Shown in pieces: positions 19,197 through 42,822 of a DNA stretch of 64,000 nt. This DNA is from Alphaproteobacteria bacterium (GTDB taxonomy: Bacteria; Pseudomonadota; Alphaproteobacteria; JACZXZ01): contig DATJLQ010000001.1 in the NCBI GenBank assembly GCA_035509415.1, forward strand, positions 101 to 64,100. The letters run 5' to 3'. The position numbers and the translations under genes were made by a program. Under the pieces are notes generated by a model that was not told the DNA's origin, did no database searches, and worked only from the letters and a program-made list of their open reading frames with translations. The number at the start of each line of letters is the position of its first letter. Positions within the stretch are counted from its first letter, which is position 1.

Positions 19197-20459
19197 ATGA
19201 CCATCTACGGCGGACCCGTTTTCGAGATGGCGCGCCAGCAATTCGTTGCCGTCGCCGACCATCTCGCCATTCCGGCCGACGAGCGCGACCGGCTCCTCTA
19301 TCCGAAGCGCGCGGTCGCGGTCGCGATCCCGATTCACGCCGACGACGGCTCGACGCGCGTGTTCGAAGGCTATCGCGTGCAGCACCACCTGACCCTCGGA
19401 CCGACCAAGGGCGGGACGCGCTTCGCGCCCACGCTCGACATCGGCGAGGTGGGGGCGCTCGCGATCTGGATGAGCTGGAAATGCGCGCTCGCGGGCCTGC
19501 CCTACGGCGGCGCCAAGGGCGGGGTCGCGTGCGACCCGTTGAAGCTCTCGCCGCGCGAGCTCGAGGCGGTGTCGCGCCGCTACATGCAGGAAATGATCCC
19601 CTTCGTCGGCCCGCACACCGACATCATGGCGCCGGACATGGGCACCAACGAGCAGGTCATGGCCTGGTTCATGGACACCTACTCCATGCATCACGGCCAC
19701 GCGATCACCGAGATCGTGACCGGGAAGCCGGTCTCGGTCGGCGGCACGGTCGGGCGGCGCGAGGCGACCGGGCGCGGCGTCGCCTATCTCGCCTCGCGCG
19801 CGCTCCAGAAGCTCAACCTGCGCTCGACCGACTGCACCGCGATCGTGCAGGGCTTCGGCAATGTCGGGAGCTACGCGGCCCTCATCCTCGCGCGCCAGCA
19901 CGGGCTCAAGATTCTCGGCGTGTCCGACCACACGGCCGCCTATTTCGACGCGCGCGGCCTGCCGCTCGACGACATCGAGCGCCACGTCGCGAAGAACCGC
20001 GTGCTCGCGGGCTGGTCCAAGGAGGCGCTCGCCGATCCCGCCGAGTTGCTTACGCGCGAATGCGACGTGCTGGTGCCGGCGGCGGTCGAGCAGGTGATTA
20101 CCGGCAAGAACGCCGGCCAGCTCAAATGCCGCGTGCTCGCCGAGGGAGCAAACGGACCCACCACACCCGAGGCGGACGCCGTCCTCGCCCAGCGCAACGA
20201 CGAGATCTTCGTCATCCCGGACATATTGTGCAATTCGGGCGGCGTGATCGTGTCCTATTTCGAATGGGTGCAGGATCTCCAACAGCTGTTCTGGACCGAG
20301 GTCGAGGTCAACAGCCGGCTCGAGCGTCTCCTCGAGATGGCGTTCCAGCAGGTGGTGAAGCGCGCGGCCGCCGAGCGGATCGCGAACCGCACCGCCGCGA
20401 TGTCGATCGGCGTCGAGAAGGTGTGGGCCGGGAAGCGCCTTCGGGGGCTGTTCCCGTGA
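19197..20459 (+). CDS. gdhA: Glu/Leu/Phe/Val-family glutamate dehydrogenase
   Basis: 420 aa with the catalytic Lys region KGGTRF and Rossmann motif GFGNVG. Confidence 0.92.
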   Translation: MTIYGGPVFEMARQQFVAVADHLAIPADERDRLLYPKRAVAVAIPIHADDGSTRVFEGYRVQHHLTLGPTKGGTRFAPTLDIGEVGALAIWMSWKCALAGLPYGGAKGGVACDPLKLSPRELEAVSRRYMQEMIPFVGPHTDIMAPDMGTNEQVMAWFMDTYSMHHGHAITEIVTGKPVSVGGTVGRREATGRGVAYLASRALQKLNLRSTDCTAIVQGFGNVGSYAALILARQHGLKILGVSDHTAAYFDARGLPLDDIERHVAKNRVLAGWSKEALADPAELLTRECDVLVPAAVEQVITGKNAGQLKCRVLAEGANGPTTPEADAVLAQRNDEIFVIPDILCNSGGVIVSYFEWVQDLQQLFWTEVEVNSRLERLLEMAFQQVVKRAAAERIANRTAAMSIGVEKVWAGKRLRGLFP

Positions 20460-21259
20460 GACGCGGCGCCGGGTTGCGCGCCGCTTTCGGCGCCGCGGCG
20501 GCGCTGGCGCTCGTCGCCGGCGCGGGCGCCGCGCGGGCGCAGGTGCGCACCTATTCCTTCCCCGAGACGCGCGTCGAGCAGCCGCGCGAGGAGAACGGCT
20601 GCGAGATCAAGCCCTACACCCAATGCATCAACGCCAATTTGCACGGCGTCGATTACTCGAACGCGAACCTGCAGCAGGCAAGCTTCCAGAACAGCAACCT
20701 GGAGCAAGCCAACCTGACCGGCGCCAACCTCGAGAGCGCCGATTTCCGCGGCGCGGACCTGACCGACGCCAATTTGACGCAGGCCGACCTCACCTTCGCG
20801 AGCTTCCAGGGCGCCAACCTCACCCACGCGAATTTCAACAGCGCCACGCTCGACTCGGCCAATTTCACCGGCGCCACCCTGTTCAAGACCGACTTCCGCT
20901 TCGCCCACATGCTGCGCGCGAAGCTCGCCGACCTCGATCTGCGCCAGACGCTGCTCTCGAACGTGAAGCTCGGCGCCGCCGATCTCGAGCGCGTCCGGCT
21001 CTCCGACGCGGACATCTCGTCGAGCTCGTTCGACCAGTCCGACTTCACGGACGCCGACCTGACGCGCGCCAACGCCAACGGCTCGAGCTTCCAGGGCGCC
21101 AATCTCTCGGGCGTCAAGCTGACCTCGGCCATCCTGACCGGCTGCGACTTCACCGGCGCGATCCTGGCCGGTGCCGATTTGACCAAGGCCAATCTCTCGG
21201 GCGCGACCTGGATCGACGGCCGCGTGTGCGCCGAGCAGTCGATCGGCACCTGCAAATAG
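20456..21259 (+). CDS. Secreted pentapeptide-repeat protein
   Basis: GTG start overlapping the gdhA stop (GTGA). Signal peptide (...ALALVAGAGAARA) followed by >30 consecutive A(D/N)LxX pentapeptide repeats. Confidence 0.7.
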   Translation: MRRGAGLRAAFGAAAALALVAGAGAARAQVRTYSFPETRVEQPREENGCEIKPYTQCINANLHGVDYSNANLQQASFQNSNLEQANLTGANLESADFRGADLTDANLTQADLTFASFQGANLTHANFNSATLDSANFTGATLFKTDFRFAHMLRAKLADLDLRQTLLSNVKLGAADLERVRLSDADISSSSFDQSDFTDADLTRANANGSSFQGANLSGVKLTSAILTGCDFTGAILAGADLTKANLSGATWIDGRVCAEQSIGTCK

Positions 21260-21323: not shown

Positions 21324-22565
21324 ATGGAGCCGCATGCGCGCGGACTGACCGAGGAGCAGCGCCTGATGCGCGCGAGCTGCCGCGCCTTCGTCGACCAGGT
21401 GGTCACGCCCTTCATGCGCCGCGACTGGCAGCGCGAATGGCTCATGGATCCGGACGCGCGCCTGCCGCCCGAAATCCTCGAGGCGGCCGACAAGGTCGGC
21501 GTACGCACCCTCGGCGTGCCCGAGGCGTTCGGCGGCATCGAGCTCGAGCCCGCGACCGAGGTGCGGAGCTTCGCCGTGATCGCGGAGGAGATCGCGCGCG
21601 GCGATTCCGGCCTCGCCGACAAGCTGGTGCAGAACTGGAAGGTCGCGGTGCTGCTGCGGAACCTGGCGCCGCGCCATCTCCAGGAGCGCTGGTTCAAGCG
21701 CCTCGTGGCCGAGCCCGGGTTCCTCCTCGCCCATTGCCTCACCGAGCCGCGCGGGGCGTCGGACCGCTGGCTGCCCTACGACGTGCCCGAGGCCGCGATG
21801 CACACGCGCGCCGTCCTCGAGGGCGACGAATGGGTCATCAACGGACGGAAGCAGTTCATCAGCAACGGCTACGACGCGGGCCTGTTCGTCGTCTACGCCA
21901 ACACGAACCCGAAGACCGGCATGATGCGCGGCACCTCGAGCTTCGTGGTGCCGCGCGATACGCCGGGCCTCACGATCGCGCGTTGCAACGAGACCATCGG
22001 CTGCCGCTTCATGAACAACGGCGAGCTGGTGTTCGAGGATTGCCGCGTGCCGCGCGACCATCTCCTGGTCGAGGGCGAGGCGCTGGGGAAGGCCGCGGTC
22101 TATTTCCGGCCCGGGAAGATCATCCAGGCGGCGAAGAATCTCGGCGTCGGGGTGGCAGCGTTCGAGCGCACGGCGGACTACGTCCAGACCTACGTCCAGG
22201 GCGGGCGCATCCTGATCAAGCACCAGGCGGTCGCGTTGCGGCTCGCCGAGATGGCGACCAAGCTCGCGGCCGTGCGCGCCCTTCTCGGCGAGGCCGCGCG
22301 CGCGGTCGACGAGCAGGCGCCCGACGCCGACCAGCTCTGCAACATGGTGAAGCTGTTCGCGTCCGAGGAGGTGTTCAAGGTGAGCCAACACGCCATGGAG
22401 CTCCATGGCGGCAACGGGGCCATGCTCGATTTCGGCATCGAGAAGCTGATGCGCGACGCGTCCATCTTCCTCCACATGGACGCGACCACGGACATTTCGC
22501 GCTTCAAGATCGTGAAGGCGATGTTCCCCGCGACCGCGGGGAAATACGCAGGGCCGGAGGCGTGA
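21324..22565 (+). CDS. Acyl-CoA dehydrogenase family protein
   Basis: 413 aa with ACAD N-terminal, middle and C-terminal domain motifs. Confidence 0.9.
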   Translation: MEPHARGLTEEQRLMRASCRAFVDQVVTPFMRRDWQREWLMDPDARLPPEILEAADKVGVRTLGVPEAFGGIELEPATEVRSFAVIAEEIARGDSGLADKLVQNWKVAVLLRNLAPRHLQERWFKRLVAEPGFLLAHCLTEPRGASDRWLPYDVPEAAMHTRAVLEGDEWVINGRKQFISNGYDAGLFVVYANTNPKTGMMRGTSSFVVPRDTPGLTIARCNETIGCRFMNNGELVFEDCRVPRDHLLVEGEALGKAAVYFRPGKIIQAAKNLGVGVAAFERTADYVQTYVQGGRILIKHQAVALRLAEMATKLAAVRALLGEAARAVDEQAPDADQLCNMVKLFASEEVFKVSQHAMELHGGNGAMLDFGIEKLMRDASIFLHMDATTDISRFKIVKAMFPATAGKYAGPEA

Positions 22566-22571
22566 CGGCGC

Positions 22572-23372
22572 TCAGTCGCAGCGCGCGGCCATGCCGCCAT
22601 CGACCAGGATCTCGGCGCCGGTGACGAAGCGCGCCTCGTCGGACGCGAGATAGAGGGCGGCAAAGGCCGTGTCGCGCCCGTCGCCCATGAAGCCGAGCGG
22701 AATGCGCTTCAGGCGCTCGGCCAAGAGCGTCTCGACGTCGCCGCCGGTGCGCTCGCGCGCGAGACGCGCCTCGACCATGGGCGTATGGAGCTGGCCCGGA
22801 ATCACGCAATTCGCGCGGATGCGCTTCGGTGCGTACTGGACCGCGGTCACGCGCGTGAGCTGAAGCACGCCCGCCTTCGACGCCGCGTAGCCGACTTGGG
22901 GATTGCCCGAGAAGCGGATGCCCGAGGTCGAGGCGACGTTCACGATCGCCCCGCCGCCCGCATCGATCATCGCCGGGATGGCGTGCTTCGTCGCGAGGAA
23001 CACGCTCGTGAGGTTGAGCTCGAGCTGGGCGTGCCACGCGGCCTCGCTCAGCTCGGCGGCACCGCCGGGTGCGGAGCCGCCCACATTGTTGACCAATATG
23101 TCGACGCGGCCGAAACGCTCGCGGCAGGCCGCGACCATTTCTTCGACCGCGTCCGCATCCGTGAGGTCGGCCAGATGGCGCACGAGCGTGCCGCCCTCCG
23201 CCGCGACCAGCGAACCGGTCTCCTCCATGCGCCCGGCGTCGCGGTCGACCGCGAACACGGAGGCGCCCTCGCGCGCGAACAGCGCCGCGATCGCGCGCCC
23301 GTTGCCCCAGCCGGGCCCGACCGAGCCAGCACCGGTCACGATCGCAACCTTGCCTTGGAGCCGTCCGGCCAT
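22572..23372 (-). CDS. SDR-family oxidoreductase
   Basis: 266 aa with TGAGSGxG, the YxxxK catalytic motif and NNVG. Confidence 0.9.
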   Translation of the reverse strand: MAGRLQGKVAIVTGAGSVGPGWGNGRAIAALFAREGASVFAVDRDAGRMEETGSLVAAEGGTLVRHLADLTDADAVEEMVAACRERFGRVDILVNNVGGSAPGGAAELSEAAWHAQLELNLTSVFLATKHAIPAMIDAGGGAIVNVASTSGIRFSGNPQVGYAASKAGVLQLTRVTAVQYAPKRIRANCVIPGQLHTPMVEARLARERTGGDVETLLAERLKRIPLGFMGDGRDTAFAALYLASDEARFVTGAEILVDGGMAARCD

Positions 23373-23396
23373 GCCGTCCCTCTCTCGATGCGGGCT

Positions 23397-23945
23397 CTAG
23401 GGCTCGAGCTCGGTGGCAGCACCCTCGGGCAGCTTCACCTCGAAGACGTTGAGGGTCATCGAGACCAGCGTGTAATAGCCGAGAATGCCGACCAGCTCGA
23501 CCAGTCCCTGGTCGCCGAGAGCCGCCGCCGCGGCATCATAGAGTGCCTCGTCGACTTGGTGCCCCTCATGAAGCGATTTCGCGAAGCGATAGACGGTGCG
23601 CTCCTCGTCGGCCGCGAAGCGCGGCTCGCGGCGCGTGCGGATGGCCTCGACGATCGCGGGGTCGAGCCCGGCGGCGAGCGCCTCCTTCTTGTGCGCATGC
23701 CACTCGTAATGGGAGGTCCAATGGCGCGCGGTCACCAGGATCGCGAGCTCGGAAAGGCGTTTCGGCAGCGAGGTCTGGTAACGCGCGAACTCGCCGAGGC
23801 GCTCGGCGCGGCGCGCGAGCTCGGGCGAGGTGAGCCACAACGCCGTCGGCGCCGGCACGCGGCCGCGGCGTGCGGTAACGTCGTCATGCACCGCGCGTTG
23901 GGCGGTGCTCATGGTCTCGGGCTTGGGCGGGGTGAGACGCGGCAT
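23397..23945 (-). CDS. Carboxymuconolactone decarboxylase (CMD/AhpD-like) family protein
   Basis: About 182 aa from internal Met (MPRLTPPKPETMSTAQR...), CMD fold. Divergent from the PcaD-like hydrolase. Confidence 0.7.
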   Translation of the reverse strand: MPRLTPPKPETMSTAQRAVHDDVTARRGRVPAPTALWLTSPELARRAERLGEFARYQTSLPKRLSELAILVTARHWTSHYEWHAHKKEALAAGLDPAIVEAIRTRREPRFAADEERTVYRFAKSLHEGHQVDEALYDAAAAALGDQGLVELVGILGYYTLVSMTLNVFEVKLPEGAATELEP

Positions 23946-24092
23946 GGATCGCTCCTCGAGGCGGCGGTCCCGTCCTGTAGCGGCTTCCGCCGGGCGGCGC
24001 AACGGCCTCGCGTGGCCGGCCAGGCTCAGGCGATTGACAGGCGCTGTGCCCCCATGGCCTATACGGCGCATGAGGACGGGCGGGGCACGCGC

Positions 24093-24902
24093 ATGATGGT
24101 CGACGCCAATGGCAGCCGCTTCCATTGCCGCGTCGACGGGCCGGACCGCGTCGACGGGCCGGCGGGAGCGCCCTGGATCGCGTTCAGCAATTCGCTTGCG
24201 ACCGATCTTTCCATGTGGGACGACCAGGCGGCTTTTTTCGCGCGCCGTTACCGCGTGCTGCGTTACGACCAACGCGGCCACGGCTTGAGCGCAGCCCCCG
24301 AGGGCGATTACGATTTCGCGCTCCTGGTCGCGGACGCGCTCGCCCTTCTCGACGCGCACGGGATCGAGCGTTGCCATTTCGTCGGATTGTCCATGGGCGG
24401 CGTCACGGCCCTCGGCCTCGCCGAGCGGCATGGCGCGCGGCTTCTCTCGGTCGCGGTGTGCGACGCGAACGGCGCCTCGAGCCCCGAGGGTGCGCGTGCC
24501 TGGAGCGAGCGCTGCACCCTCGCGCGCGCCCAAGGTATCGAGGCGCTGGTCGAGCCGACGGTGAAGCGCTGGTTCCATCCCGATTATTACGCGCGCAATC
24601 CCGCGGGGCTCGAGAAGGTACGCGGGATGATCCGAACGACCCCGCTCGCGGGCTTTCTCGGCTGCGCCGCGGCGCTCTCGGATTACGACTACAAGACGGA
24701 TTTGGGCCGCATCCGCGTGCCGACGCTGTTTCTCGCAGGTGCCGAGGACGGTGCCGTGCCCCAAGGCATGCGCGCGATGGCGGCGTCCGTCCCGGGTGCG
24801 CGTTATGCCGAGGTCTCGCCCGCGGGCCATATCTCCAACATCGAGCAGCCCGAAGCCTTCACCGAGGCGCTCGGCGATTTCATCGCGAGCGTCGCGTCAT
24901 GA
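24093..24902 (+). CDS. Alpha/beta hydrolase, 3-oxoadipate enol-lactonase (PcaD)-like
   Basis: Internal Met-Met (MMVDANG...), PcaD signature AFSNSLATDLSMWD, nucleophile elbow GLSMGG. ATGA overlap with the downstream transaminase gene. Confidence 0.8.
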   Translation: MMVDANGSRFHCRVDGPDRVDGPAGAPWIAFSNSLATDLSMWDDQAAFFARRYRVLRYDQRGHGLSAAPEGDYDFALLVADALALLDAHGIERCHFVGLSMGGVTALGLAERHGARLLSVAVCDANGASSPEGARAWSERCTLARAQGIEALVEPTVKRWFHPDYYARNPAGLEKVRGMIRTTPLAGFLGCAAALSDYDYKTDLGRIRVPTLFLAGAEDGAVPQGMRAMAASVPGARYAEVSPAGHISNIEQPEAFTEALGDFIASVAS

Positions 24903-26221
24903 GCGCCGGGATCGAGCGGCCCAACGACCTCGCCGCCTATTGGATGCCGTTCACGGCCAACCGGCGCTTCAAGGCCGATCCCGTGATGCTGGTCGGAGCC
25001 GAGGGCATGTATTACCGCGCGGCCGACGGCCGCGAGATCCTCGACGGCTCGGCCGGGCTCTGGTGCGTGAACGCGGGCCATGGGCGGAAGGAAATCGTCG
25101 ACGCGGTGCATGGCGCGATGTCGACCCTCGATTACGCGCCCTCGTTCCAGGTCGGCCATCCCTTGGCCTTCACCGCCGCGAGCCGCCTCGCCGCGATCGC
25201 GCCCGCCGATTTGAGCCGCGTCTTCTTCACGAACTCCGGCTCGGAATCGGTCGATACCGCGCTCAAGATCGCCCTCGCCTATCACCGCGCGCGCGGCGAG
25301 GGGCAACGCACGCGCTTCGTCGGACGCGAGCGCGGCTATCACGGCGTCGGCTTCGGCGGCATTTCCGTGGGCGGCATTGCGGCGAACCGCAAGGCGTTCG
25401 GCACCCTCCTGCCCGGCATCGACCATCTGCCCCACACCCATTTGCCCGAGCAAAACGCCTTCGCGCGCGGCCAGCCCGCTTACGGCGCCGAGCTCGCCGA
25501 TGCGCTCGAGCGTATCGTGGCGTTGCACGATCCCTCGACCGTCGCGGCCGTGATCGTCGAGCCCGTCGCGGGCTCGACCGGCGTGCTCATCCCGCCCAAG
25601 GGCTATCTCGAGCGTCTGCGCGCGATCTGCGACAAGCACGGCATTCTCCTCATCTTCGACGAGGTGATCACCGGCTTCGGGCGTTTGGGCTCCGCCTTCG
25701 CCGCGACGCGCTTCGGCATCGCCCCCGACCTCATCGCCTGCGCCAAGGGCTTGACCAACGGCGCCATCCCCATGGGGGCCGTGCTGGTGCGCGAGCCGAT
25801 CCACGCTTCCCTCATGACCGGGCCCGAGGAGACGATCGAGCTCTTCCACGGCTACACCTATTCGGGCCATCCCGCGGCAGCGGCGGCGGCGATTGCGACC
25901 CTCGACATTTACGCCAAGGAAAAGCTGTTCGAGCGCGCGGCGTCGCTCGAGAAGACATGGGAAGACGCGGTCCACGGGCTCAAAGGCCTGCCGCACGTGA
26001 TCGACATCCGCAATCTCGGCCTCGTGGCGGGCATCGAGCTCGAGTCTGCCCCCGGAAAGCCGGGTGCGCGCGGCTATGCCGCGTTCCGGCAATGCTTCGA
26101 GCGCGGGCTGTTCCTGCGTTTCACCGGCGACATCCTCGCCCTCTCGCCGCCGCTCGTGATCTCGGCGGCCGAGATCGAGCGCATCTTCGCGATCGTCGCC
26201 CAGGTGTTGAAATCGCTCTAG
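24899..26221 (+). CDS. Class III (omega) aminotransferase, beta-alanine/omega-amino acid:pyruvate type
   Basis: 440 aa, PLP-dependent with catalytic Lys in ACAKGLTNG, and DEVITGFGR. Confidence 0.9.
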   Translation: MSAGIERPNDLAAYWMPFTANRRFKADPVMLVGAEGMYYRAADGREILDGSAGLWCVNAGHGRKEIVDAVHGAMSTLDYAPSFQVGHPLAFTAASRLAAIAPADLSRVFFTNSGSESVDTALKIALAYHRARGEGQRTRFVGRERGYHGVGFGGISVGGIAANRKAFGTLLPGIDHLPHTHLPEQNAFARGQPAYGAELADALERIVALHDPSTVAAVIVEPVAGSTGVLIPPKGYLERLRAICDKHGILLIFDEVITGFGRLGSAFAATRFGIAPDLIACAKGLTNGAIPMGAVLVREPIHASLMTGPEETIELFHGYTYSGHPAAAAAAIATLDIYAKEKLFERAASLEKTWEDAVHGLKGLPHVIDIRNLGLVAGIELESAPGKPGARGYAAFRQCFERGLFLRFTGDILALSPPLVISAAEIERIFAIVAQVLKSL

Positions 26222-26268
26222 GCTATGCGACCCAACGACGGACGCATCAACGCAAGGGAAGACGCGAC

Positions 26269-27237
26269 ATGGACGGCAAGATCGGGCTCGAGGAGCATTT
26301 CGCGACGGAGGAAACGATCGGCGATTCGGCGGGCTTCGTCGACGATGCGACCTGGGTCGATCTCAAGGCGCGTCTCCTCGATTTCCAGGAGAAGCGCGTC
26401 GCGATCATGGACCAGCTCGGCATCGAGCGCATGATCCTCTCACTCAACGCGCCCGCGATCCAGCGCATCGACGACGCCAAGAAGGCGGCCGAGGTCGCGC
26501 GTCGCGCCAACGACTTGCTCGCGCAGCAGATCGCGAAGCGGCCTCATCGATTCTCGGGCTTCGCGGCGCTTGCGATGCAGGACCCCGAGGGGGCCGCGCG
26601 CGAGCTCGAGCGCTCGGTCGAGCAATACGGCTTCAAGGGTGCCCTGGTGAACGGCTATTCCCAGCTCGGCAATCCCGAGAACTGCCTCTATTACGACGTG
26701 AAGAGCTACTGGCCGTTCTGGGCCGCGGTCGAGGAGATCGGCGTTCCCTTCTATCTCCATCCGCGCGAGCCGAGCCAGCGCCGCGCCTATGAGGGCCATC
26801 CCTGGCTGGTCGGTCCCGCCTACGGCTTCGCGGCCGAGACCGGGCTCCACGCGTTGCGCCTCATGGGCTCGGGCCTGTTCGACAAGTATCCGCGGCTCAC
26901 CATCATCCTCGGCCACATGGGCGAGAACCTGCCCTTCACGCTTCATCGCACCGATGGGCGCATCGCCTGGTCGCCCATGGGCTATCCGGCAAAGCACCCG
27001 ATCTCCCACTACTTCCGCAACAACTTCTACATCACCACCGCCGGCAATTTCCGTACCCAGTCTCTCGTCTCCTCGATGCTCGAGGTGGGTGCCGACCGCA
27101 TCCTGTTCTCGACCGACTATCCTTTCGAGCAGGCGGCGGAGGCGGCGCACTGGTTCGACGCCGCCTCGATCAGCGAGGCCGACCGGCTCAAGATCGGCCG
27201 CACCAATGCGCTGAAGCTGTTCAAGCTCGGCGCGTGA
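26269..27237 (+). CDS. Amidohydrolase-2 family non-oxidative decarboxylase (ACMSD / gamma-resorcylate decarboxylase-like)
   Basis: 322 aa MDGKIGLEEHFATEE...HPREP...HMGE...STDYPFE metal-ligand pattern of the ACMSD/RSD/LigW family. AAGGGAAG Shine-Dalgarno upstream. Confidence 0.85.
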   Translation: MDGKIGLEEHFATEETIGDSAGFVDDATWVDLKARLLDFQEKRVAIMDQLGIERMILSLNAPAIQRIDDAKKAAEVARRANDLLAQQIAKRPHRFSGFAALAMQDPEGAARELERSVEQYGFKGALVNGYSQLGNPENCLYYDVKSYWPFWAAVEEIGVPFYLHPREPSQRRAYEGHPWLVGPAYGFAAETGLHALRLMGSGLFDKYPRLTIILGHMGENLPFTLHRTDGRIAWSPMGYPAKHPISHYFRNNFYITTAGNFRTQSLVSSMLEVGADRILFSTDYPFEQAAEAAHWFDAASISEADRLKIGRTNALKLFKLGA

Positions 27238-27259
27238 CGCGCGGCGCGGGAGGACATCC

Positions 27260-28291
27260 ATGGAGCCCGTGAGATTGGCGCTCGCCGGGGCCGGGATCAT
27301 CGGCCGCGCCCATGCCGGCGTGATCGCGCGCGACCCCGGGGCGACGCTGGTCGCGATCGCGGATCCGGCACCCGCCGCCGCGGATTATGCGCGCGAGCTC
27401 GGGGTCGCCCATTTCGCCGACGTGGCGGACATGCTCGACGATGCCAAGCCCGAGGGCCTGGTGGTCGCGTCCCCCAATGCGCTTCACCTTCCCCACGCAC
27501 TCGCCGCGATCGAGCGCCGCATTCCGGCGCTCGTCGAGAAGCCGATCGCCGACACGCTCGAGGCGGCCGCGTCGCTGGTCGCGGCGTCGGATGCCGCGCG
27601 CGTCCCCGTCCTGGTCGGCCACCACCGGCGCCACAGCCCGACGATCGCCGCGGCGCGCGACGCGGTGCGCGCGGGGCGCATCGGGCGCGTGGTCTCGGTC
27701 GCAGCCCTCTGCCAGTACCTGAAGCCCGACGCCTATTTCGACATTGCCTGGCGCCGCGCCCCCGGCGGCGGGCCGGTCCTCATCAATCTCATCCACGACA
27801 TCGACAGCCTGCGCCACGTCGTGGGCGAGATCGCGAGCGTGCAGGCCGCGACCTCGAACGCGGTGCGCGGCTTTCCGGTCGAGGACACCGCCGCCCTCGT
27901 GCTGCGCTTCGCCGAGGGTGCCATCGGCACGGTCGCGATCACGGACGCGGCCGCCGCCCCCTGGAACTGGGAGCACGATTCGGGCGAGAATCCGTTCTAC
28001 CCGCATGTCGCGGAGAATTGCTATTACCTCGCGGGCACCGAGGGGGCGCTCGCGTTGCCGCGCCTCGACCTCTGGCGCTACGAAGGGGCGCGCGGCTGGA
28101 CCGAGCCCTTCGCCCGTTCGCGCCTCGAGATCGTGCGCGCCGATCCGCTCGTCGTGCAGATGCGCCATTTCTGCCGCGTCGCGCGCGGAGAAGAGGCGCC
28201 GCTCGTCTCGGCCGAGGACGCGGCGCGCACCCTTGCCGCGACGCTTGCGGCACGCCGCTCGGCCGAGACCGGCGCGCGCATCGATTTGTGA
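27260..28291 (+). CDS. Gfo/Idh/MocA-family NAD(P)-dependent oxidoreductase
   Basis: 343 aa with an N-terminal Rossmann LAGAGIIGRAH and C-terminal alpha/beta domain. Confidence 0.9.
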   Translation: MEPVRLALAGAGIIGRAHAGVIARDPGATLVAIADPAPAAADYARELGVAHFADVADMLDDAKPEGLVVASPNALHLPHALAAIERRIPALVEKPIADTLEAAASLVAASDAARVPVLVGHHRRHSPTIAAARDAVRAGRIGRVVSVAALCQYLKPDAYFDIAWRRAPGGGPVLINLIHDIDSLRHVVGEIASVQAATSNAVRGFPVEDTAALVLRFAEGAIGTVAITDAAAAPWNWEHDSGENPFYPHVAENCYYLAGTEGALALPRLDLWRYEGARGWTEPFARSRLEIVRADPLVVQMRHFCRVARGEEAPLVSAEDAARTLAATLAARRSAETGARIDL

Positions 28292-28300
28292 GAGCTGCCC

Positions 28301-29176
28301 TCAGCCGCCGAACATCGGCTCCGGCACGCCGCGCACGCCGACCTCGAGCCTGAAGAGGCTGCCCGCCTCGGGCTCGGCCGCGCGCTGGGCCGCGTCGAGG
28401 GCGAAGGATGCCGAAGTGACGTAGAGACAGTCCAGGCGCTCGCCGCCGAAAGCGCAGCAGGTGGGACAGCTCACCGGCAATTCGACCTCGCGGTCGACCC
28501 GCCCGTCGGGCGCATAGCGCACGATGCGGCCGCCGGCATATTCGGCGTTCCAGAGAAACCCCTCCGCGTCGACGCAGGAGCCATCGGGCCGGCCGCGTCG
28601 GCCCGCAAGGTCGGCGAAGACGCGCCGGTTCGAGATCGCACCCGAGGCGAGGTCGAGATCGAAGGTCCAGATCGCGAAGCGCCGCGTGTCGGCGAAGAAG
28701 AGACGCCGGTCGTCGAGGTCGAAGGCGAGGGAGTTCGGGATTGCGATGCCGCCGAGGACGCGCGCCGCGCGCCCGCTTGGCTCGACGCGATAGAGCGCTC
28801 CCGTGACACCGCGGTCCGCGGCATCCATCGAGCCGACCCAGAAGCGTCCGCGCCGGTCGCACTTCCCGTCATTGAGCCGGTTTCCCGGCCGGTCCGGCTC
28901 GAGCTCGACGAGCGGCGTCGCCTCGCCACGTCCGGGCTCGAAGCCGAGCAGTCCCCGCTCGGTCGCGAGCACGAACCCGCCCGAGGCGCGTAGCGCGATC
29001 GAGCCGAGCGTCTCAGCCGGCACGCGCTCGATCCGATGCTCGCCCGTCGCGGGATCGTAGGATTGGAGCGCCGGGCGCAGGATGTCGACCCACCAGAGGC
29101 GCTTGGTGCGCGCGCACCAGAGGGGCGATTCGCCGAGCCGATCCCGGCTCGGCACGATGCACTCGATGTCGGTCAT
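28301..29176 (-). CDS. SMP-30/gluconolactonase/LRE-family lactonase
   Basis: 291 aa from internal Met (MTDIECIV...), six-bladed beta-propeller motifs. Convergent with the preceding operon. Confidence 0.85.
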   Translation of the reverse strand: MTDIECIVPSRDRLGESPLWCARTKRLWWVDILRPALQSYDPATGEHRIERVPAETLGSIALRASGGFVLATERGLLGFEPGRGEATPLVELEPDRPGNRLNDGKCDRRGRFWVGSMDAADRGVTGALYRVEPSGRAARVLGGIAIPNSLAFDLDDRRLFFADTRRFAIWTFDLDLASGAISNRRVFADLAGRRGRPDGSCVDAEGFLWNAEYAGGRIVRYAPDGRVDREVELPVSCPTCCAFGGERLDCLYVTSASFALDAAQRAAEPEAGSLFRLEVGVRGVPEPMFGG

Positions 29177-29295
29177 GCCGCACGCGGTCCCGGGCGGCGG
29201 GCGCCCCTGCCTCTCTGTGGCCGATCGCGCGCCCGATTGCAACCGCGCGCGGCGTCAGAGCGCCGGAGCCTCCGGCGCGTCAGAGCGTCTTGGCG

Positions 29296-31212
29296 TCAGA
29301 GCGTCCGGGCGAGCACCTCGAACGAGGAGGCGGCGCGGGCATTGGCTTGGGCGGCCAAACGCACCGGCGTGTTGGCGGCGCCGAACAGGTCGTAGTTGCG
29401 CCGCTCGACGATCTCGAAGAAGAAGCGGTCCTCGAAGGTCGCGGTGTAGGCGTGGAAGAACTCGCCGCCGGCCTGGCCGCGGTCGTAGAGCACGTTGAGC
29501 TCGCGCATGCGCTCGAGCGCGGGTGCTGGAATGTCGAAGCGCGCGCCGAGGTCTTCGTAGTAGTTCTTCGGGATGTCGAGGAAGGAGACGCCGCGGTCGC
29601 GCGCGCGCTCGACGAAATCGAGCAGGTTCGCGGTTTCGAGCGCGATCTGCTGGATGCCGGCGCCGCCGAATGCGCCCATGAAGCTCACGGCCGCGGTCGA
29701 TCCGCCCTCGGCGACGTTGAGCGGGATGCGGATCTGGCCGTCGCGCGAGCGCACGACGCGGCTCGAGAGGGCGCCGTAGGGATCGGCGAGCTCGATCTGG
29801 GGCTCGCTCACGAAGCCGAACATGGCCTTGTAGAACAAGAGCCAGGTGAGGAATTCGCCGCGCCGCACGACGTTGGAGAAATGGTCGATGCGCGTGAGCG
29901 GACCCGGCACCGTGGGCCCCAGGGGCACGAAATCGCGCTCCCAGATCGACGGGCCCGAGCGCGCGCCGGGCGCGGGCACGAAATAGATCAGGCTGTTCTC
30001 GATTCCCGCGATCGCCGGGATCAGCGTCTCGCCCTGGCCGATGCGCCCGTAATAGGTGCTCGAGCCGAGCGCGTTGGCGCGCTCGAGCGCGCGCTCCGGC
30101 TCGTCGAAGCGCAGCGCCATGGCGCACACCGAGGTCCCGTGCACCAAAAAGAAGGAATGGGCGAAGCTGTCGGTCTCGCGGTTGACCACGATGTTAACGT
30201 CGTTCTGGCGGTAGAGATCGATGTCCTTGCTGCGATGATGGCCCGCGCGCGCGAAGCCGAGCCCCTCGAGAAGCTTGGCGAGCCGCCCGGCCTCCTTGCC
30301 GCCCGAGGCGAACTCGACGAACTCGATGCCGCGGACCTGGGCGGGTGGCGGCATCGGCGCCCCCGACGGCGTCGCCGGCACCGTCACGGACGGATGCGCG
30401 CGCCGCAGCGCCTCGCCGCACAGCTCGAGCGAGCGCATGCCGTCGAGGGCGATGCCCGAGACCGAGGCGCCGCGGAACTGGTCGTTGAAGATCACGAGCG
30501 AAACCGGCCCGCTGTAGCCCGTGCGCACGACCGCCTCGAGGAACGGCTCGATCGGCCAGTCGCCCTGGCCGGGAAAGCAGCGGTGATGCCGGCTCAAGGA
30601 CATCGGGTCCATCACCAGCGCCGGCGCGTCCGCGATTTGGACCAGCGCGATGCGGTCGCCCGGCAACGACGAGATCGTCTCGATCGGGCCGTTGCGCACC
30701 AAAGTGTGGAAGCTGTCGAGCACGAGGCCGAGATTGGGCCGGTCGGCGAGACGCACGATGTCCCACGCCTGGGTCCATTCGCGCACGTGGGTGCCCCAGG
30801 CGAGCGCCTGGTAGCCGATGCGCAGCCCGCGCGCCTGGGCGCGGTCGGCGAGCAGCGCCAGGTCCGCGGCGGCGCGCTCCACCCCGTCGAGCGCCTCGGG
30901 TGCGACGTTCGAGCACACGCAGAGAAGCCGCGTGCCGAGCTCGTCCATCAGGTCGAGCTTGCGGCTCGCGCGCTCGAGGTTGCGCGCGCGTTGCGGCTCG
31001 GGCATGGCCTCGAAGTCGCGCAGCGGCTGGAGGGCCACGATCTCGAGCCCGAGGCCCTCGGCCATGCGGCGCACGTCGCGCGGCGAGCCGTTGAAGAAGG
31101 TCAGGTCGTTCTCGAACAGCTCGACGGCGCGGAAGCCGGCCTTGGCGACCGCCATCAGCTTGGCCTCGAGGGTCCCGCCCAGGGACGCCGTCGAGATCGA
31201 CCATTTGAGCAT
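29296..31212 (-). CDS. quiC: 3-dehydroshikimate dehydratase, fused QuiC1 type (sugar-phosphate isomerase/TIM-barrel N-domain + HPPD/VOC-like C-domain)
   Basis: 638 aa. The N-terminal 280 aa are xylose-isomerase-like TIM barrel (AsbF-like). The C-terminal 350 aa are 4-hydroxyphenylpyruvate-dioxygenase-like. Same architecture as Pseudomonas QuiC1. Confidence 0.8.
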   Translation of the reverse strand: MLKWSISTASLGGTLEAKLMAVAKAGFRAVELFENDLTFFNGSPRDVRRMAEGLGLEIVALQPLRDFEAMPEPQRARNLERASRKLDLMDELGTRLLCVCSNVAPEALDGVERAAADLALLADRAQARGLRIGYQALAWGTHVREWTQAWDIVRLADRPNLGLVLDSFHTLVRNGPIETISSLPGDRIALVQIADAPALVMDPMSLSRHHRCFPGQGDWPIEPFLEAVVRTGYSGPVSLVIFNDQFRGASVSGIALDGMRSLELCGEALRRAHPSVTVPATPSGAPMPPPAQVRGIEFVEFASGGKEAGRLAKLLEGLGFARAGHHRSKDIDLYRQNDVNIVVNRETDSFAHSFFLVHGTSVCAMALRFDEPERALERANALGSSTYYGRIGQGETLIPAIAGIENSLIYFVPAPGARSGPSIWERDFVPLGPTVPGPLTRIDHFSNVVRRGEFLTWLLFYKAMFGFVSEPQIELADPYGALSSRVVRSRDGQIRIPLNVAEGGSTAAVSFMGAFGGAGIQQIALETANLLDFVERARDRGVSFLDIPKNYYEDLGARFDIPAPALERMRELNVLYDRGQAGGEFFHAYTATFEDRFFFEIVERRNYDLFGAANTPVRLAAQANARAASSFEVLARTL

Positions 31213-31219
31213 TGCAGTA

Positions 31220-31298
31220 ATCTCCTATATTTCGGAGATAATCATATAACTACGCAATTTGAAAATAAAGCGGATTTGACGTAGGGTCGCCGGGCGAC
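31220..31298. promoter_or_regulatory. quiC/gntR divergent control region with palindromes and AT-rich box
   Basis: ATCTCC-N8-GGAGAT (31220-31239). AT-rich AATCATATAACT (-10-like for both directions). GTCGCCgGGCGAC palindrome (31286-31298). Confidence 0.35.
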
Positions 31299-31321
31299 TC
31301 TTTCCGAGCGGATGGGCGGCA

Positions 31322-32071
31322 ATGAGCGACGGAGCGGAACGGGCTGCCGGTTCGGCGACGCTGACGGAGGCGCTCCAGGAGCGTATCCGCCAGGATATCA
31401 TCTTGGGCGCGCTCGAGCCAGGCGCCAAGCTCCGGCTCGAGCGTCTGCGCAAGATTTACGGCGCGAGCGTCAACACGCTGCGCGAGACGCTCTCGCGCCT
31501 CGCCTCGGAGGGGCTGGTCGTGGCCGAGGGCCAACGCGGCTTCGCGGTGCTGCCGGTCTCGCTCGAGGATTTGCGCGACATCACCTACATGCGCCAGCTT
31601 CTCGAGTGCCATGCGCTCCGGGTCTCGATCGAGCATGCCGACCTCGACTGGGAGGCGCGCGTGGTGGGCGCCTACCACAAGCTTTCCAAGATCGACAACC
31701 TGGTCGAGGATCGCCCCGACGAATTCGGCGACGCGTGGGAGAAGTACAATCAGGAATTCCACGAGGCGCTGATCTCGAATTGCGGCTCGCGTTGGCTCGC
31801 GTTGTTCCACCGGGCCATGTACGACCACAGCCGGCGCTACCGCATGCTCTCGCTCAAGACCAAGCCGTTCCCGCGCTCGCAATCGGCCGAGGAGCACAAG
31901 GCTATTCTCGAGGCCGCGATCGCGCGCGACGCGGACCGGGCTTGCGCGATCCTCCAGGCTCACATCCTCAAGGGTGCCGATCTCGATCAGCCCGGCGAAG
32001 TGGCGGCCAAGGCGCAAAAGCGCGGCGCCGCGCGCCGGCGCCAGGGCAACGCGAGTGCCAAGCAGAAATAG
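31322..32071 (+). CDS. GntR-family (FadR/FCD subfamily) transcriptional regulator
   Basis: 249 aa with N-terminal wHTH (LRLERLRKIYGASVNTLRETLSRLASEGLV) and C-terminal FCD domain. Divergent from quiC. Confidence 0.9.
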   Translation: MSDGAERAAGSATLTEALQERIRQDIILGALEPGAKLRLERLRKIYGASVNTLRETLSRLASEGLVVAEGQRGFAVLPVSLEDLRDITYMRQLLECHALRVSIEHADLDWEARVVGAYHKLSKIDNLVEDRPDEFGDAWEKYNQEFHEALISNCGSRWLALFHRAMYDHSRRYRMLSLKTKPFPRSQSAEEHKAILEAAIARDADRACAILQAHILKGADLDQPGEVAAKAQKRGAARRRQGNASAKQK

Positions 32072-32098
32072 CGCCGCGCCGAGGAGCGCCGTCCGCGC

Positions 32099-33859
32099 TC
32101 ACACGGTCGCGACGTGGGAAATGCCCTTTCCCGGCGAATAGATGTCCAGAATGTTCCAGTGGCCGGCGGTCGGCGTCGGGTTGTTGACCATCGCGACGTC
32201 GATCACCGAAGGCCGGCCCGAAGCGATCGCCTCCGCGAGCGCGGGCTTGAACTCGGACGCCTTGCGGATGCGGATGCCGTGGACGCCGTAGCCGCGCGCG
32301 ATCGCGGCATAGTCGGGCATGAAGGGCCCGCCCGTCTCCGGGAAGGTCGTGCCGTAGGTCAGGCCGAAATGCGCCTTCTGCAGGCCCGCGATCGTGCCGA
32401 AGGCGTTGTTGTTCATGACCACCCAGATCACCGCGAGATTTTCCTCGGCCGCGGTCGCGAGCGTCGCGGGGTTCTGGCCGAAGCCGCCGTCGCCGACGAG
32501 CGAGACCACCACCCGGTCCGGCCGCGCGATCTTGGCGCCGAGCGCCGCGGGCGGGCCGAATCCCATGGTCGCGTAGCCGCCGGGGGTCAAGATGCTGCCG
32601 GGCGTATAGATGGGGAATTGCTGGCCGACGCCGTTCTTGTTCCAGCCCACGTCGGTCGTGACGATGGCGTCGCGCGGCAGCACCTCGCGCACTTCGGCGA
32701 GGATGCGCTCGGGCATCATCGGGAACGCCTCGCTCCGCACCATCTCGAGATTGGCCCGACGCTGCTCGGCGCGATAGGCCGCGATCTCGCGCTCGAGCGC
32801 CTCGTTGCGGCGCGCGCGCGGCACGAGCTCGCGCGCGATCCGGTTGAGCGTCTTGAGCGCCTGCTTCAAGTCCGCGACCGCGCCGATCGCGGTCGGGAAA
32901 TTGCGCCCGATCTCGCTCGGCTCGATGTCGATGTGGATGAGCTTCGAGGGCGGGAAGCTGAAGGTGTATTTGGGCTCCCAGGAGCTGCTGTCGGCCTCCT
33001 TGAAGCGCGTGCCGAGGCCGAGCATCCAATCGGCGCCGAGGCACTTCGCGTTGATGAACTTGGTACCCCAGAAGCCGGTCATGCCGAGGACGAGCGGATG
33101 GTCGTCGGGCAAGGCGCCCTTGCCCATGAGGCTGTGGGCGACCGGGATCGCGAGATGGTCGACCAAGGCGCGTAGCTCCTCCGCCGCCTGGGCCAGCACG
33201 ACGCCGCCGCCGACATAGATCACCGGCCGCTTCGCCGCGGCGAGCGTGCGCACGATCTCGGCCGCGACCGCGGCGTCGATGTCCGGCTTCGCGATCGACT
33301 TCGCGTTGAGGGCCAGCCGGTCGAAGCGCTCGACGTCCACCTCGCGCGAGAAAATGTCCATCGGCACGTCGACCAGGACCGGTCCCGGCTGACCCGATTC
33401 CGCGAGCTGGAACGCCTTCTCGATGATCTCGGGGAACAGCTCCGGGCTCTCGACGCGCCAGGCGCGCTTCACGAACGGGCGATAGATCTCGAACTGGGTC
33501 GCGTCGCCGTGGAGGTTGACCTCCTGGTGCGGATGCTTGCCGTAGTAATGGCTCGGGATGTCGCCCGCGATCACCACCATGGGAATGCAGTCGAGGGCCG
33601 CGTTGGCGACCCCGGTCGCGGCGTTGGTCAGGCCCGGGCCGAGATGGGTCAGGAGCACCGAGGCCTTCCCGGTCACGCGCGCGTAGCCGTCGGCGGCGTG
33701 CGCCGCGATCTGCTCGTGCCGCACGGTGACGAACTGGATCTTGCTGTTCGCCATCGCCGAGAGCACCGCGATGTTGGTGTGGCCGCACAGCCCGAAGACG
33801 TGGGTGATGCCGCGGCCTTCGAGGTAGCGGACCAGCTGATGGGAGACGAGATCGCGCAT
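32099..33859 (-). CDS. Thiamine-diphosphate-dependent enzyme (acetolactate-synthase-like; sulfoacetaldehyde acetyltransferase / oxo-acid lyase-type candidate)
   Basis: 586 aa from internal Met (MRDLVSHQL...) of the 1101-aa fused ORF. TPP motif GDGGFGQN-X22-NNNAFG and a central FAD/ADP-like domain. Confidence 0.85.
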   Translation of the reverse strand: MRDLVSHQLVRYLEGRGITHVFGLCGHTNIAVLSAMANSKIQFVTVRHEQIAAHAADGYARVTGKASVLLTHLGPGLTNAATGVANAALDCIPMVVIAGDIPSHYYGKHPHQEVNLHGDATQFEIYRPFVKRAWRVESPELFPEIIEKAFQLAESGQPGPVLVDVPMDIFSREVDVERFDRLALNAKSIAKPDIDAAVAAEIVRTLAAAKRPVIYVGGGVVLAQAAEELRALVDHLAIPVAHSLMGKGALPDDHPLVLGMTGFWGTKFINAKCLGADWMLGLGTRFKEADSSSWEPKYTFSFPPSKLIHIDIEPSEIGRNFPTAIGAVADLKQALKTLNRIARELVPRARRNEALEREIAAYRAEQRRANLEMVRSEAFPMMPERILAEVREVLPRDAIVTTDVGWNKNGVGQQFPIYTPGSILTPGGYATMGFGPPAALGAKIARPDRVVVSLVGDGGFGQNPATLATAAEENLAVIWVVMNNNAFGTIAGLQKAHFGLTYGTTFPETGGPFMPDYAAIARGYGVHGIRIRKASEFKPALAEAIASGRPSVIDVAMVNNPTPTAGHWNILDIYSPGKGISHVATV

Positions 33860-33900
33860 GGGATCCTCGCAATCGGTGCGCGCCGAGGCGCGCCCCGCGA

Positions 33901-35307: not shown

Positions 35308-35355
35308 GATCGACGCGTCCTCCGCTCGATGCCGCCGACGCGGCGGCGGCGCGCG

Positions 35356-35739
35356 CTAGCGGGTCGGCAGGAATCCGGGCGGCGCGTAGCACCACAGCAG
35401 CCACAACGGCTCGTTGCCGTCGTTGTAGTGGACGTGCGCGTTGCCGGCGGGGATGAAGATCCAGTCGTTCTGCTTGAAGCGCATCTCGGTGCCGGCGGTG
35501 CGGTCGTAGGCGATGCCGCCGCCGCGGATCGCGACGTTGATTTCCTCGGAGCCCGGGTGATTGTGCTCGGCGCAGCGCTCGCCGGGCTCGAACACGGTCA
35601 GGCCGGCAACCATCTGCGAAGCGCCCACGCGGTCCTTGTCGATGAGCCTGAAGACCTTGCGCCGCAACCCCTCCTCGCCGAGGCCGAGCCAGATTTCCTT
35701 GGCGTCCTTGAAGGGGTCGAGGATTTGAATCTTGTTCAT
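35356..35739 (-). CDS. Cupin-domain protein (cupin_2), small
   Basis: 127 aa with metal-binding His motif HNHPGSEE...H. First gene of the cupin-ALDH-TPP operon. Confidence 0.8.
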   Translation of the reverse strand: MNKIQILDPFKDAKEIWLGLGEEGLRRKVFRLIDKDRVGASQMVAGLTVFEPGERCAEHNHPGSEEINVAIRGGGIAYDRTAGTEMRFKQNDWIFIPAGNAHVHYNDGNEPLWLLWCYAPPGFLPTR

Positions 35740-35837
35740 CGAGGTTCCTCCCTGACGCGCGCGGCGCCTCTTCTCGGGTTCCGATCGCCGCGCGGCCGCA
35801 TTACCGCCGATCGGCCCGCGCGCCGCAATCGATGGAG

Positions 35838-35889
35838 CGTAAACATCCTATGTTTCGCGTTTACGCCAAAAATGTACCATTTTGTACAT
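35838..35889. promoter_or_regulatory. Operator-like palindromes upstream of the cupin operon
   Basis: Nested palindromes CGTAAAC-N14-GTTTACG and AAACAT-cct-ATGTTT (35838-35865). ATGTAC-N6-GTACAT with A/T flanks (35872-35889). An AT-rich ATCATATAT box follows at about 35911. Confidence 0.45.
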
Positions 35890-36019
35890 CTCGGCGCCGA
35901 ACCGTGTCAATGGCAGGAACATCATATATTTTTCGAAATATGGAAAAGCATTCGGAATCCGTCGCGTACGCGACGCGGCGCGTCGGCGCCCGGGCCAAGC
36001 CGGCCCGGAGTCGCAACCG

Positions 36020-37210: not shown

Positions 37211-37253
37211 GCGGGTCGCTTCGTCATGCCGGGCGCGTTCCCATGCCGGCGCG

Positions 37254-38201: not shown

Positions 38202-38351
38202 GGCCGATCTCCTCGCGCTCGCGCCGGCCGCGCGCGGCCGACGCCGCCTTGCCATGTCGCGCCGAAATCGCGCGCGGCGCCGCGTGCGGAGCCGTGATTG
38301 ATAATCTCGGGTCGGTTGACTGTCAACTCGCGGCCAAGTGCGCGCGGCTCC

Positions 38352-38807: not shown

Positions 38808-39072
38808 GTTCGCTCTCCCTCGGATTCGGGCGCCCGGCGCCGGCACGCTCGGCGCTCGCGGCCGCCGGCCATCCCTAGGCCCGACGGCCCCGCTTGTCAA
38901 TTCGAGGCGGCCGGTTCGCCGGTGCCGCGACCGCTCGAAGCTTGGCGTGCCATGATTTGCATTTCGCGCCCGCACAGAGCATCCTGTGCCTCGGTCCATG
39001 GCGCTTCCCGCCTGCGTCGCGCGCGCCTCGGCGCCCCGCGACCGCCCGGGCCGCCCGCCGGAGATTTCCCCC

Positions 39073-39729: not shown

Positions 39730-39779
39730 GCGGCGCGGACCGCGGTCTCCCTCCGGGGCGGCGCCGCTGTTTTGGCTCG

Positions 39780-41517: not shown

Positions 41518-41519
41518 CC

Positions 41520-42818: not shown

Positions 42819-42822
42819 CGCC

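Follow-up and report, generated by a model that had tools for sequence, protein, structure and literature searches.

One question raised by the locus described here is whether four catabolic genes, packed as closely as the members of a single transcription unit, also serve a single pathway. The genes lie together on the forward strand at 24093-28291 of a 64-kb stretch of DNA from an uncultured alphaproteobacterium (contig DATJLQ010000001.1, positions 101 to 64,100; hereafter the window, meaning this stretch at its full length of 64,000 nucleotides) and encode a hydrolase (ABH), a transaminase (AT), a decarboxylase (RSD) and a dehydrogenase (GFO), with a divergent gene of the carboxymuconolactone decarboxylase (CMD) family on one side and a convergent SMP-30 gene on the other. 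The original prediction, made from the letters of the DNA alone, suggested that the set is one pathway acting on an amino- or lactone-bearing hydroxy-aromatic or hydroaromatic compound. Comparison with other genomes leads us to a different view, which we hold with fair confidence, namely that the four genes make up a lineage-specific mosaic operon in a catabolic island and not a conserved pathway. None of them is unusual within its family, and each family is populous and has its own, different conserved neighbourhood elsewhere. The four genes are as follows.

24093-24902, forward strand: PcaD-like alpha/beta-fold hydrolase, an enol-lactonase family paralogue of 269 amino acids (ABH; Abhydrolase_1/6, TIGR02427, structure 2xua).
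24899-26221, forward strand: AptA/BauA-type omega-amino acid (beta-alanine):pyruvate aminotransferase of 440 amino acids (AT; Aminotran_3, NF052567, structure 4b98).
26269-27237, forward strand: gamma-resorcylate (2,6-dihydroxybenzoate)-type metal-dependent non-oxidative decarboxylase of 322 amino acids (RSD; PF04909, structures 3s4t/4qro and 2dvt).
27260-28291, forward strand: NAD(P)-dependent dehydrogenase of the Gfo/Idh/MocA family, belonging to an uncharacterised subfamily, of 343 amino acids (GFO; PF01408, PF22725, PF02894).

The gene map of the window was taken from the public contig L001, which is essentially identical to it, and was combined with Pfam and NCBIfam scans; apart from the segment 45330-48679, most genes predicted to encode 180 amino acids or more were annotated in this way. 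The window has a GC content of about 68%, and mechanical lists of open reading frames are crowded in consequence. All four frames translate without internal stops, and their third-position GC (0.82-0.90) is high, as in real genes, but lower, above all in ABH, than the 0.91-0.94 of most flanking catabolic genes. The family assignments of the four proteins and of their CMD and SMP-30 neighbours were borne out by Pfam, NCBIfam and structure scores, two of the labels being refined below.

Neighbourhood conservation had been named beforehand as the test of the single pathway, and it came out against it: at the loci sampled, orthologues of the four genes do not recur together in unrelated genomes, nor are they co-localised beyond very close relatives. 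With RSD as the anchor, GTDB representatives (one genome per species) were scanned with an alignment of the RSD clade, and the best 80 loci (61-81% identity), each with flanks of up to 10 kb wherever the contig was long enough, were compared with 18 window proteins by tblastn. None of the 80 contains GFO, the SMP-30 gene or the QuiC1-like dehydratase found next to it in the window, and none contains an orthologous transaminase or a close hydrolase. The only class-III transaminase matches occur at two Variovorax loci (31-32% identical, 6.7 kb off and on the other strand), and the only hydrolase match is 29% identical and 4.3 kb off. The same approach with GFO as the anchor on metagenome contigs (80 loci, L086-L165, 46-59% identity) likewise yielded no locus with RSD or ABH; a single one has a transaminase, 31% identical and 10 kb away. 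No co-occurrence of operon partners was seen in the three AT contexts and three ABH contexts sampled, and on three Rhizobium leguminosarum plasmids which carry orthologues of both AT and RSD more than 200 kb separates the two.

Where parts of the arrangement are shared, they are shared by close relatives only, and in a nested fashion. Loci L001-L003 match the window (97-100% identity over shared genes). The 455-kb contig L004 (RSD 90%, AT 86% and GFO 69% identical) has the CMD gene on the reverse strand followed by AT-RSD-GFO; it lacks ABH, the SMP-30 gene and a 16-kb block, and its GFO runs straight into a block of ABC-transporter, short-chain dehydrogenase/reductase (SDR) and shikimate dehydrogenase genes. 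In L166 (RSD 81%, GFO 64%) the reverse-strand CMD gene is followed by RSD-GFO and a reverse-strand QuiC1-like gene, with neither ABH nor AT. At the DNA level the window and L004 are 82% identical and either is 77-78% identical to L166, the window grouping with L004. A further two lineages (L006 and L007, RSD 80-81% identical) are without all operon partners, and nothing convincing by way of remnants of ABH or AT was found in the intergenic regions of L004 and L166. The series thus runs from RSD-GFO (L166) through AT-RSD-GFO (L004) to ABH-AT-RSD-GFO (the window). Taken with the absence of partners from L006 and L007, it would most simply be read as stepwise addition of genes at the promoter-proximal end, beside the divergent CMD gene, with RSD-GFO in place first, then AT and then ABH; on this simplest reading the lineages would differ by gain and not by loss.

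The transaminase illustrates how ordinary the individual members are. Formerly labelled only an omega-transaminase, it is placed by its scores in the AptA/BauA beta-alanine:pyruvate group: it reaches 724.2 bits against NCBIfam NF052567 (omega-aminotransferase AptA; cut-off 500) over model positions 2-430 of 431, and 466 bits over residues 10-438 against the Pseudomonas aeruginosa beta-alanine:pyruvate transaminase 4b98, with its motif for the lysine that forms the Schiff base with pyridoxal phosphate, CAKGLTNGA, aligned with VAKQVTNGA of that structure. The identities of its homologues fall from 100% through 86% and 86% to a plateau of 68-73%, which comprises thousands of entries named beta-alanine--pyruvate transaminase. 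One orthologue, in Ralstonia (70% identical), precedes mmsA and faces a MocR-type regulator, another (73%) abuts an alanine dehydrogenase gene, and the third sampled (70%) stands alone. By both scores and by the lysine, AT thus resembles the enzymes of beta-alanine catabolism (bauA/aptA with mmsA/bauC; BauA, structure 4b98; Caulobacter AptA), but it differs from those loci in its setting: no malonate/methylmalonate-semialdehyde dehydrogenase, MocR-type regulator or alanine dehydrogenase gene adjoins it in the window, where its immediate neighbours are a hydrolase gene and a decarboxylase gene. The most likely activity would be that of AptA/BauA, the conversion of beta-alanine or a similar omega-amino acid, with pyruvate, to the semialdehyde and alanine.

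Similarly, the decarboxylase, at first described as ACMSD-type, is by alignment of the gamma-resorcylate-decarboxylase type. It matches PF04909 (Amidohydro_2) with 151 bits over residues 31-320 and aligns end to end with the crystallised gamma-resorcylate decarboxylases (3s4t, 454 bits; 2dvt, 440 bits; about 63% identity), the scores against other families being 259 bits (2,3-DHBD), 201 (salicylate decarboxylase), 188 (LigW) and at most 85 (ACMSD). The metal ligands of gamma-resorcylate decarboxylase are Glu8, His10, His164 and Asp287, the last of which is also the proton donor (PMC8187880). In RSD the residues E8, H10, H164 and D283 (equivalent to D287) align with the ligands in 3s4t/4qro and 2dvt and are invariant in 24 clade members. 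RSD would most likely decarboxylate an ortho-hydroxybenzoate (2,6-dihydroxybenzoate, for example), which would bind a Mn2+ or Zn2+ ion held by Glu8, His10, His164 and Asp283, with Asp283 protonating C1.

Elsewhere the usual company of RSD is resorcinol and ring-cleavage genes. Its cluster on the R. leguminosarum plasmid pRle248e, a textbook one, comprises a MarR regulator, a flavin reductase, a flavin monooxygenase, tsdA, a maleylacetate reductase and a dioxygenase; the Pfam-annotated loci L169 and L171 contain FAH-family, extradiol dioxygenase and hydroxylase genes; and FAH-family and MFS genes are the recurrent neighbours across the 80 loci. Clusters of this kind include gra of Rhizobium sp. 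MTP-10005 and tsd of Rhodococcus jostii. The likeness of the window to them lies in the end-to-end identity of about 63% between RSD and both the crystallised enzymes and the PGAP-named tsdA, and in the four retained ligands. The differences lie in the neighbourhood: RSD has no adjoining resorcinol hydroxylase, flavin reductase, hydroxyquinol dioxygenase, maleylacetate reductase or MarR regulator, and the hydroxylase, the dioxygenase and maleylacetate reductase are absent within 10 kb in the window. The clade to which RSD belongs (about 69-100% identity, 320-324 amino acids) also shows two 2-residue deletions relative to both crystallised enzymes, one following the HPREP motif and one following the IAW motif, and the substrate pocket, and with it the specificity, might be altered by them.

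The hydrolase falls at the very edge of the PcaD family, its 255.5 bits against TIGR02427 being 0.35 bits short of the trusted cut-off of 255.85. With the PcaD structure 2xua of Burkholderia xenovorans the score is 202 bits, and the Ser-Asp-His triad (the serine of GLSMGG, the aspartate of GAED and the histidine of GHISNIE) aligns. Its start is ambiguous between 24093, the earlier choice, 24054, the public gene call on L001, and 24012; a perfect TTGACA at 24033-24038 falls inside both longer versions, and the short form is therefore favoured if the hexamer is a -35 box. Among the loci examined ABH occurs only in the window's own organism. Its closest plasmid homologues (44-47% identical) are unnamed hydrolases in three unrelated contexts, and identity drops to about 40-41% for plasmid genes with the PGAP name pcaD. 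In fold and triad ABH resembles PcaD of the beta-ketoadipate pathway, the score lying essentially at the cut-off, but pcaB, pcaC, pcaG, pcaH, pcaI, pcaJ and pcaF are all missing from the annotated genes of the window. The CMD neighbour, for its part, reaches no more than 19.6 bits with the PcaDC model and is kept in relatives without ABH. We regard ABH as a PcaD-family paralogue which would most likely hydrolyse an enol-lactone or an ester. Its third-position GC is the lowest of the region (0.82, against 0.88-0.94 in its neighbours), a value consistent with its being the most recent arrival.

The dehydrogenase has the composition expected of its family, an N-terminal Rossmann domain and a C-terminal alpha/beta domain (PF01408, 79 bits; PF22725, 80 bits; PF02894, 66 bits). 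Its translation shows the GAGIIG and EKP motifs, and 21 homologues all share G10, G12, G15, E93, K94 and P95. It falls into none of the characterised subfamilies compared (IolG, levoglucosan dehydrogenase, AFR, LigC/PmdC and others): the top NCBIfam match is IolG with 140 bits against a cut-off of 355, and the top solved structure scores only 106 bits. Thousands of homologues at 50-60% identity form a subfamily without a characterised representative.

What distinguishes GFO from its partners is the company it keeps. When the count is limited to loci of at least 8 kb, genes for shikimate dehydrogenase, type II dehydroquinase or dehydroshikimate dehydratase accompany it at 27 of its 39 loci but at only 4 of the 73 RSD loci (Fisher p = 1e-12). 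A QuiC1-like fusion stands directly beside the GFO orthologue in about 13 of the 80 metagenome loci, as well as in L166 and in Rhizobium anhuiense, and homologues of the window's GntR/FCD regulator are near it in 8 of the 80 and again in R. anhuiense. In L172 and L173 GFO has ABC-transporter genes on one side and the gene for a short AP_endonuc_2 protein on the other, the L172 cluster also having a shikimate dehydrogenase, and in L086, L167 and L168 an enzyme dependent on thiamine diphosphate (ThDP), 69-72% identical to one encoded in the window, is immediately upstream. GFO is, then, a recurrent member of bacterial quinate/shikimate clusters, which is the most useful by-product of this analysis, and of the four genes it alone is demonstrably linked in evolution to the adjacent quinate genes. 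Given this association, it is best assigned to the hydroaromatic module that flanks the operon. It would most likely oxidise, with NAD(P)+, a hydroxyl of a hydroaromatic acid of the quinate/shikimate type, and its functional partners would be the QuiC1-like dehydratase, the shikimate dehydrogenases and the transporters encoded nearby.

An unmistakable quinate cluster of the qui/qsu type is found in a cultured organism, on the R. anhuiense plasmid pRA_T24_2, where the order is GntR, QuiC1-like (reverse strand), binding protein, type II dehydroquinase, ABC genes, shikimate dehydrogenase, GFO and aroQ. A member of the same GFO subfamily (about 50% identity) thus lies there between shikimate dehydrogenase and aroQ; the cluster shares a QuiC1-like and a GntR gene with the window, which has two shikimate dehydrogenase paralogues nearby. 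The window differs in that its GFO is grouped with RSD, AT and ABH and is convergent to the dehydratase, and in that its annotated genes yielded no type II dehydroquinase. In fungi, the qut gene qutH encodes a Gfo/Idh/MocA protein which is induced by quinate and whose role is unexplained (PMC12610400). The quinate association of bacterial GFO parallels that of qutH, a likeness at the level of the family; the Aspergillus niger gene lies off the cluster. In the literature we found no description of a bacterial Gfo/Idh/MocA enzyme in quinate clusters, the remark on fungal qutH being the only related statement that turned up.

The relatives of the four genes therefore sit in four different familiar neighbourhoods, so that the combination in the window is best seen as a recent patchwork in one bacterial lineage, in which each enzyme would most likely carry out the reaction of its own family independently. 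As a pathway the set matters little: what is new is the lineage-restricted arrangement, the gene kinds being already known and their combination confined to one narrow lineage. The locus clearly exemplifies how tight operon packing can hint at a pathway that finds no support in comparative genomics, and it offers a case of an operon that has apparently grown by one gene at a time beside a divergent promoter. The GFO subfamily is the more useful result, since it offers a concrete enzyme for testing in hydroaromatic catabolism and echoes the long-unexplained fungal qutH.

Several points weigh against a patchwork of independent enzymes. The overlap of ABH and AT, described below, suggests that the two are translationally coupled. 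The spacing of RSD and GFO is kept at 22-26 bp across three lineages, over which GFO has diverged to 64%, and selection for coupling, in addition to inherited synteny, could be the cause. The AT and ABH anchors were sampled far less deeply than the other two, with three contexts each and plasmid cross-checks. The view is, moreover, that of the 64-kb window, and a second AT copy, mmsA, pca genes or resorcinol genes may lie elsewhere in the genome.

The constancy of the RSD-GFO spacing invites the idea that these two genes alone form a functional core, in which GFO, possibly together with the QuiC1-like enzyme, turns an acid of the quinate/shikimate type into an ortho-hydroxybenzoate that RSD decarboxylates, AT and ABH being later passengers. 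The pair is adjacent in all three lineages, always beside hydroaromatic genes, and the two deletions of the RSD clade could change its specificity. We nonetheless consider such a core unlikely. Neither gene brought the other with it in the 80 loci drawn for each, L006 and L007 possess RSD without GFO, and the three lineages share their flanks (a Glu-DH-like gene, a pentapeptide-repeat gene and CMD), so that inherited synteny suffices to account for the adjacency. We also know of no dehydroshikimate-derived product with the ortho-hydroxyl that the RSD mechanism requires.

A second alternative concerns transcription and not function. The junctions read as originally described: the ABH stop TGA (24900-24902) overlaps the AT start (ATG, 24899-24901) as ATGA; the AT stop TAG (26219-26221) is followed after a 47-bp spacer, with a Shine-Dalgarno-like element AAGGGAAG, by the RSD start (ATG, 26269); and the RSD stop (27235-27237) is separated from the GFO start (ATG, 27260) by 22 bp containing GGGAGGA. 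The GFO stop (28289-28291) is 9 bp from that of the convergent SMP-30 gene (28301-28303). An Rfam scan of the whole window returned no family. The region from which transcription would start is given here.

23946-24092, no strand assigned: divergent intergenic region, presumed promoter region of the forward-strand operon, with TTGACA at 24033-24038.

A consensus scan found no full sigma-70 match in this region, which we nevertheless infer to be the promoter of the operon, and shared regulation of the four genes from this CMD-proximal promoter is plausible. If, instead, internal promoters drive RSD or GFO or both, the packing would be incidental in a compact genome. Each of the two spacers does have a Shine-Dalgarno element of its own, the divergent intergenic region is followed directly by RSD in L166 and by AT in L004, and the sole promoter-like consensus match in the scanned region lies inside RSD, at 26879-26906. 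Yet a single match is no more than chance could supply (0.5 +/- 0.7 expected), and a scan of 23300-29400 detected no terminator-like site. In bacteria no simple feature predicts co-transcription better than same-strand spacers of at most 50 bp that lack a terminator. Separate transcription is accordingly rather improbable, and the four genes are probably a real, co-transcribed operon, a term that is a fair description because same-strand spacing this tight usually signals co-transcription.

The same overlap, spacers and lack of terminator-like sites are what chiefly speak for a single dedicated and undescribed pathway, comprising the four enzymes with the SMP-30 and CMD proteins and feeding the quinate/protocatechuate genes. 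A catabolic island that also encodes a QuiC1-like dehydratase and shikimate dehydrogenases would be a suitable setting for it, the recurrence of the AT-RSD-GFO trio in L004 would fit as well, and it is correct, as was originally claimed, that no characterised pathway is known to use exactly this gene set. Of the adjacent genes invoked, those for quinate are present, in the form of the dehydratase and two shikimate dehydrogenase paralogues with transporters, but no protocatechuate ring-cleavage (pca) gene is among the annotated genes of the window. We think such a pathway very unlikely. The set is unseen outside close relatives, and even these drop members of it, ABH and SMP-30 in both L004 and L166 and AT in L166. 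AT is a high-scoring beta-alanine:pyruvate equivalog whose orthologues accompany mmsA or alanine dehydrogenase, and RSD is a plain gamma-resorcylate-decarboxylase orthologue. We give as little credence to the proposal that RSD-GFO constitutes a new hydroaromatic branch, with GFO as a possible bacterial counterpart of qutH oxidising a quinate/shikimate-derived acid to an ortho-hydroxybenzoate for decarboxylation by RSD, and with AT and ABH recruited later to widen the substrate range. Breakdown of flavonoids or depsides by an esterase and a phloroglucinol-carboxylate decarboxylase was set aside, ABH being confined, among the loci examined, to the window's own organism.

The operon stands in a catabolic island which spans about 16.5-50.3 kb of the window, the preceding DNA, up to about 16 kb, being filled by housekeeping and metal-uptake genes. 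Upstream of the operon are genes for an MFS transporter, an FAH-family hydrolase, a Glu-DH-like protein, a pentapeptide-repeat protein, an acyl-CoA dehydrogenase and, on the reverse strand, an SDR and CMD. Downstream are SMP-30 and the QuiC1-like gene (both reverse strand), GntR, then on the reverse strand the ThDP enzyme, an acylating aldehyde dehydrogenase, a cupin, a CoA-transferase and an HMGL-like gene, and finally TetR. Beyond TetR follow a TRAP transporter, a shikimate-DH-like gene, an ABC transporter, an SDR and a second shikimate-DH-like gene, and then efflux and housekeeping genes. The principal flanking features are these.

23397-23945, reverse strand: divergent gene of the CMD family (carboxymuconolactone decarboxylase/AhpD-like), 182 amino acids (PF02627, 29.2 bits).
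28301-29176, reverse strand, with a start possibly at 29242: convergent gene of the SMP-30/gluconolactonase family (SGL; PF08450, 279 bits; regucalcin structures, 170 bits).
29296-31212, reverse strand: 3-dehydroshikimate dehydratase of QuiC1/QsuB type, a fusion of a TIM-barrel and an HPPD-like part (5hmq, 607 bits, full length).
31322-32071, forward strand: GntR/FCD-family regulator beside the dehydratase (Pfam GntR and FCD).
32099-35739, reverse strand: acetolactate-synthase-like ThDP enzyme, acylating aldehyde dehydrogenase and cupin, all below every equivalog cut-off.
39919-43755, forward strand: TRAP transporter DctPQM and a shikimate-DH-like gene (Pfam).
44114-50333, forward strand: branched-chain-type ABC transporter, SDR and a shikimate-DH-like gene (Pfam).

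The CMD gene, whose product is not PcaC-like by NCBIfam, adjoins the cluster in all three related lineages (82% identical in L004, 74% in L166). The QuiC1-like dehydratase scores 684 bits against NF042435 (QuiC), under the cut-off of 1200. In the branched-chain-type transporter the permease and ATPase genes at 45330-48679 were assigned from size and from collinearity with L004. The two modules that each combine a transporter with a shikimate-DH-like gene suggest the uptake of two different hydroaromatic substrates. The block of about 16 kb that separates the window from L004 corresponds to 28301-44113 and is missing at 12020-12400 of L004, where only a 79-amino-acid open reading frame intervenes; it contains the SMP-30, QuiC1-like, GntR, ThDP, aldehyde dehydrogenase, cupin, CoA-transferase, HMGL-like, TetR, TRAP and first shikimate-DH-like genes.

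In some other genomes GFO occurs in the order SDR, aldehyde dehydrogenase, ThDP enzyme, GFO and AP_endonuc_2 (L167, 6701-11912; also L168 and L086), a layout which recalls the logic of iolA/iolD/iolG/iolE for the opening of a carbocycle. In the window the ThDP, aldehyde dehydrogenase and cupin genes lie 4 kb from GFO in the opposite orientation, and their proteins score below the curated equivalog cut-offs. An iol-like ring cleavage by a dehydrogenase, a TIM-barrel dehydratase, a ThDP hydrolase and an acylating aldehyde dehydrogenase acting in series was considered and set aside for the window, where the ThDP enzyme is acetolactate-synthase-like and IolD is not among its 25 best matches. Sulfonate or taurine metabolism, a candidate prompted by SauS-like and Xsc-like matches of window proteins and by a TauE gene in L167, was rejected, the scores being too low (459 against a cut-off of 600 and 314 against a cut-off of 620). 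The acyl-CoA-dehydrogenase-family gene at 21324-22565 was considered as a GraA-like resorcinol hydroxylase and rejected as part of the cluster; NCBIfam placement, by which it was judged without direct comparison with GraA-type sequences, puts it among true acyl-CoA dehydrogenases, and it is absent from L004 and L166.

A last observation concerns the far upstream flank, where a gene of the Glu/Leu/Phe/Val-dehydrogenase family (19197-20459, forward strand), glutamate-DH-like and below the equivalog cut-offs, overlaps by 4 bp a gene for a pentapeptide-repeat protein of 267 amino acids (20456-21259, forward strand). The coupling of these two is unusual and has no obvious rationale, and the pair is kept in both L004 and L166.

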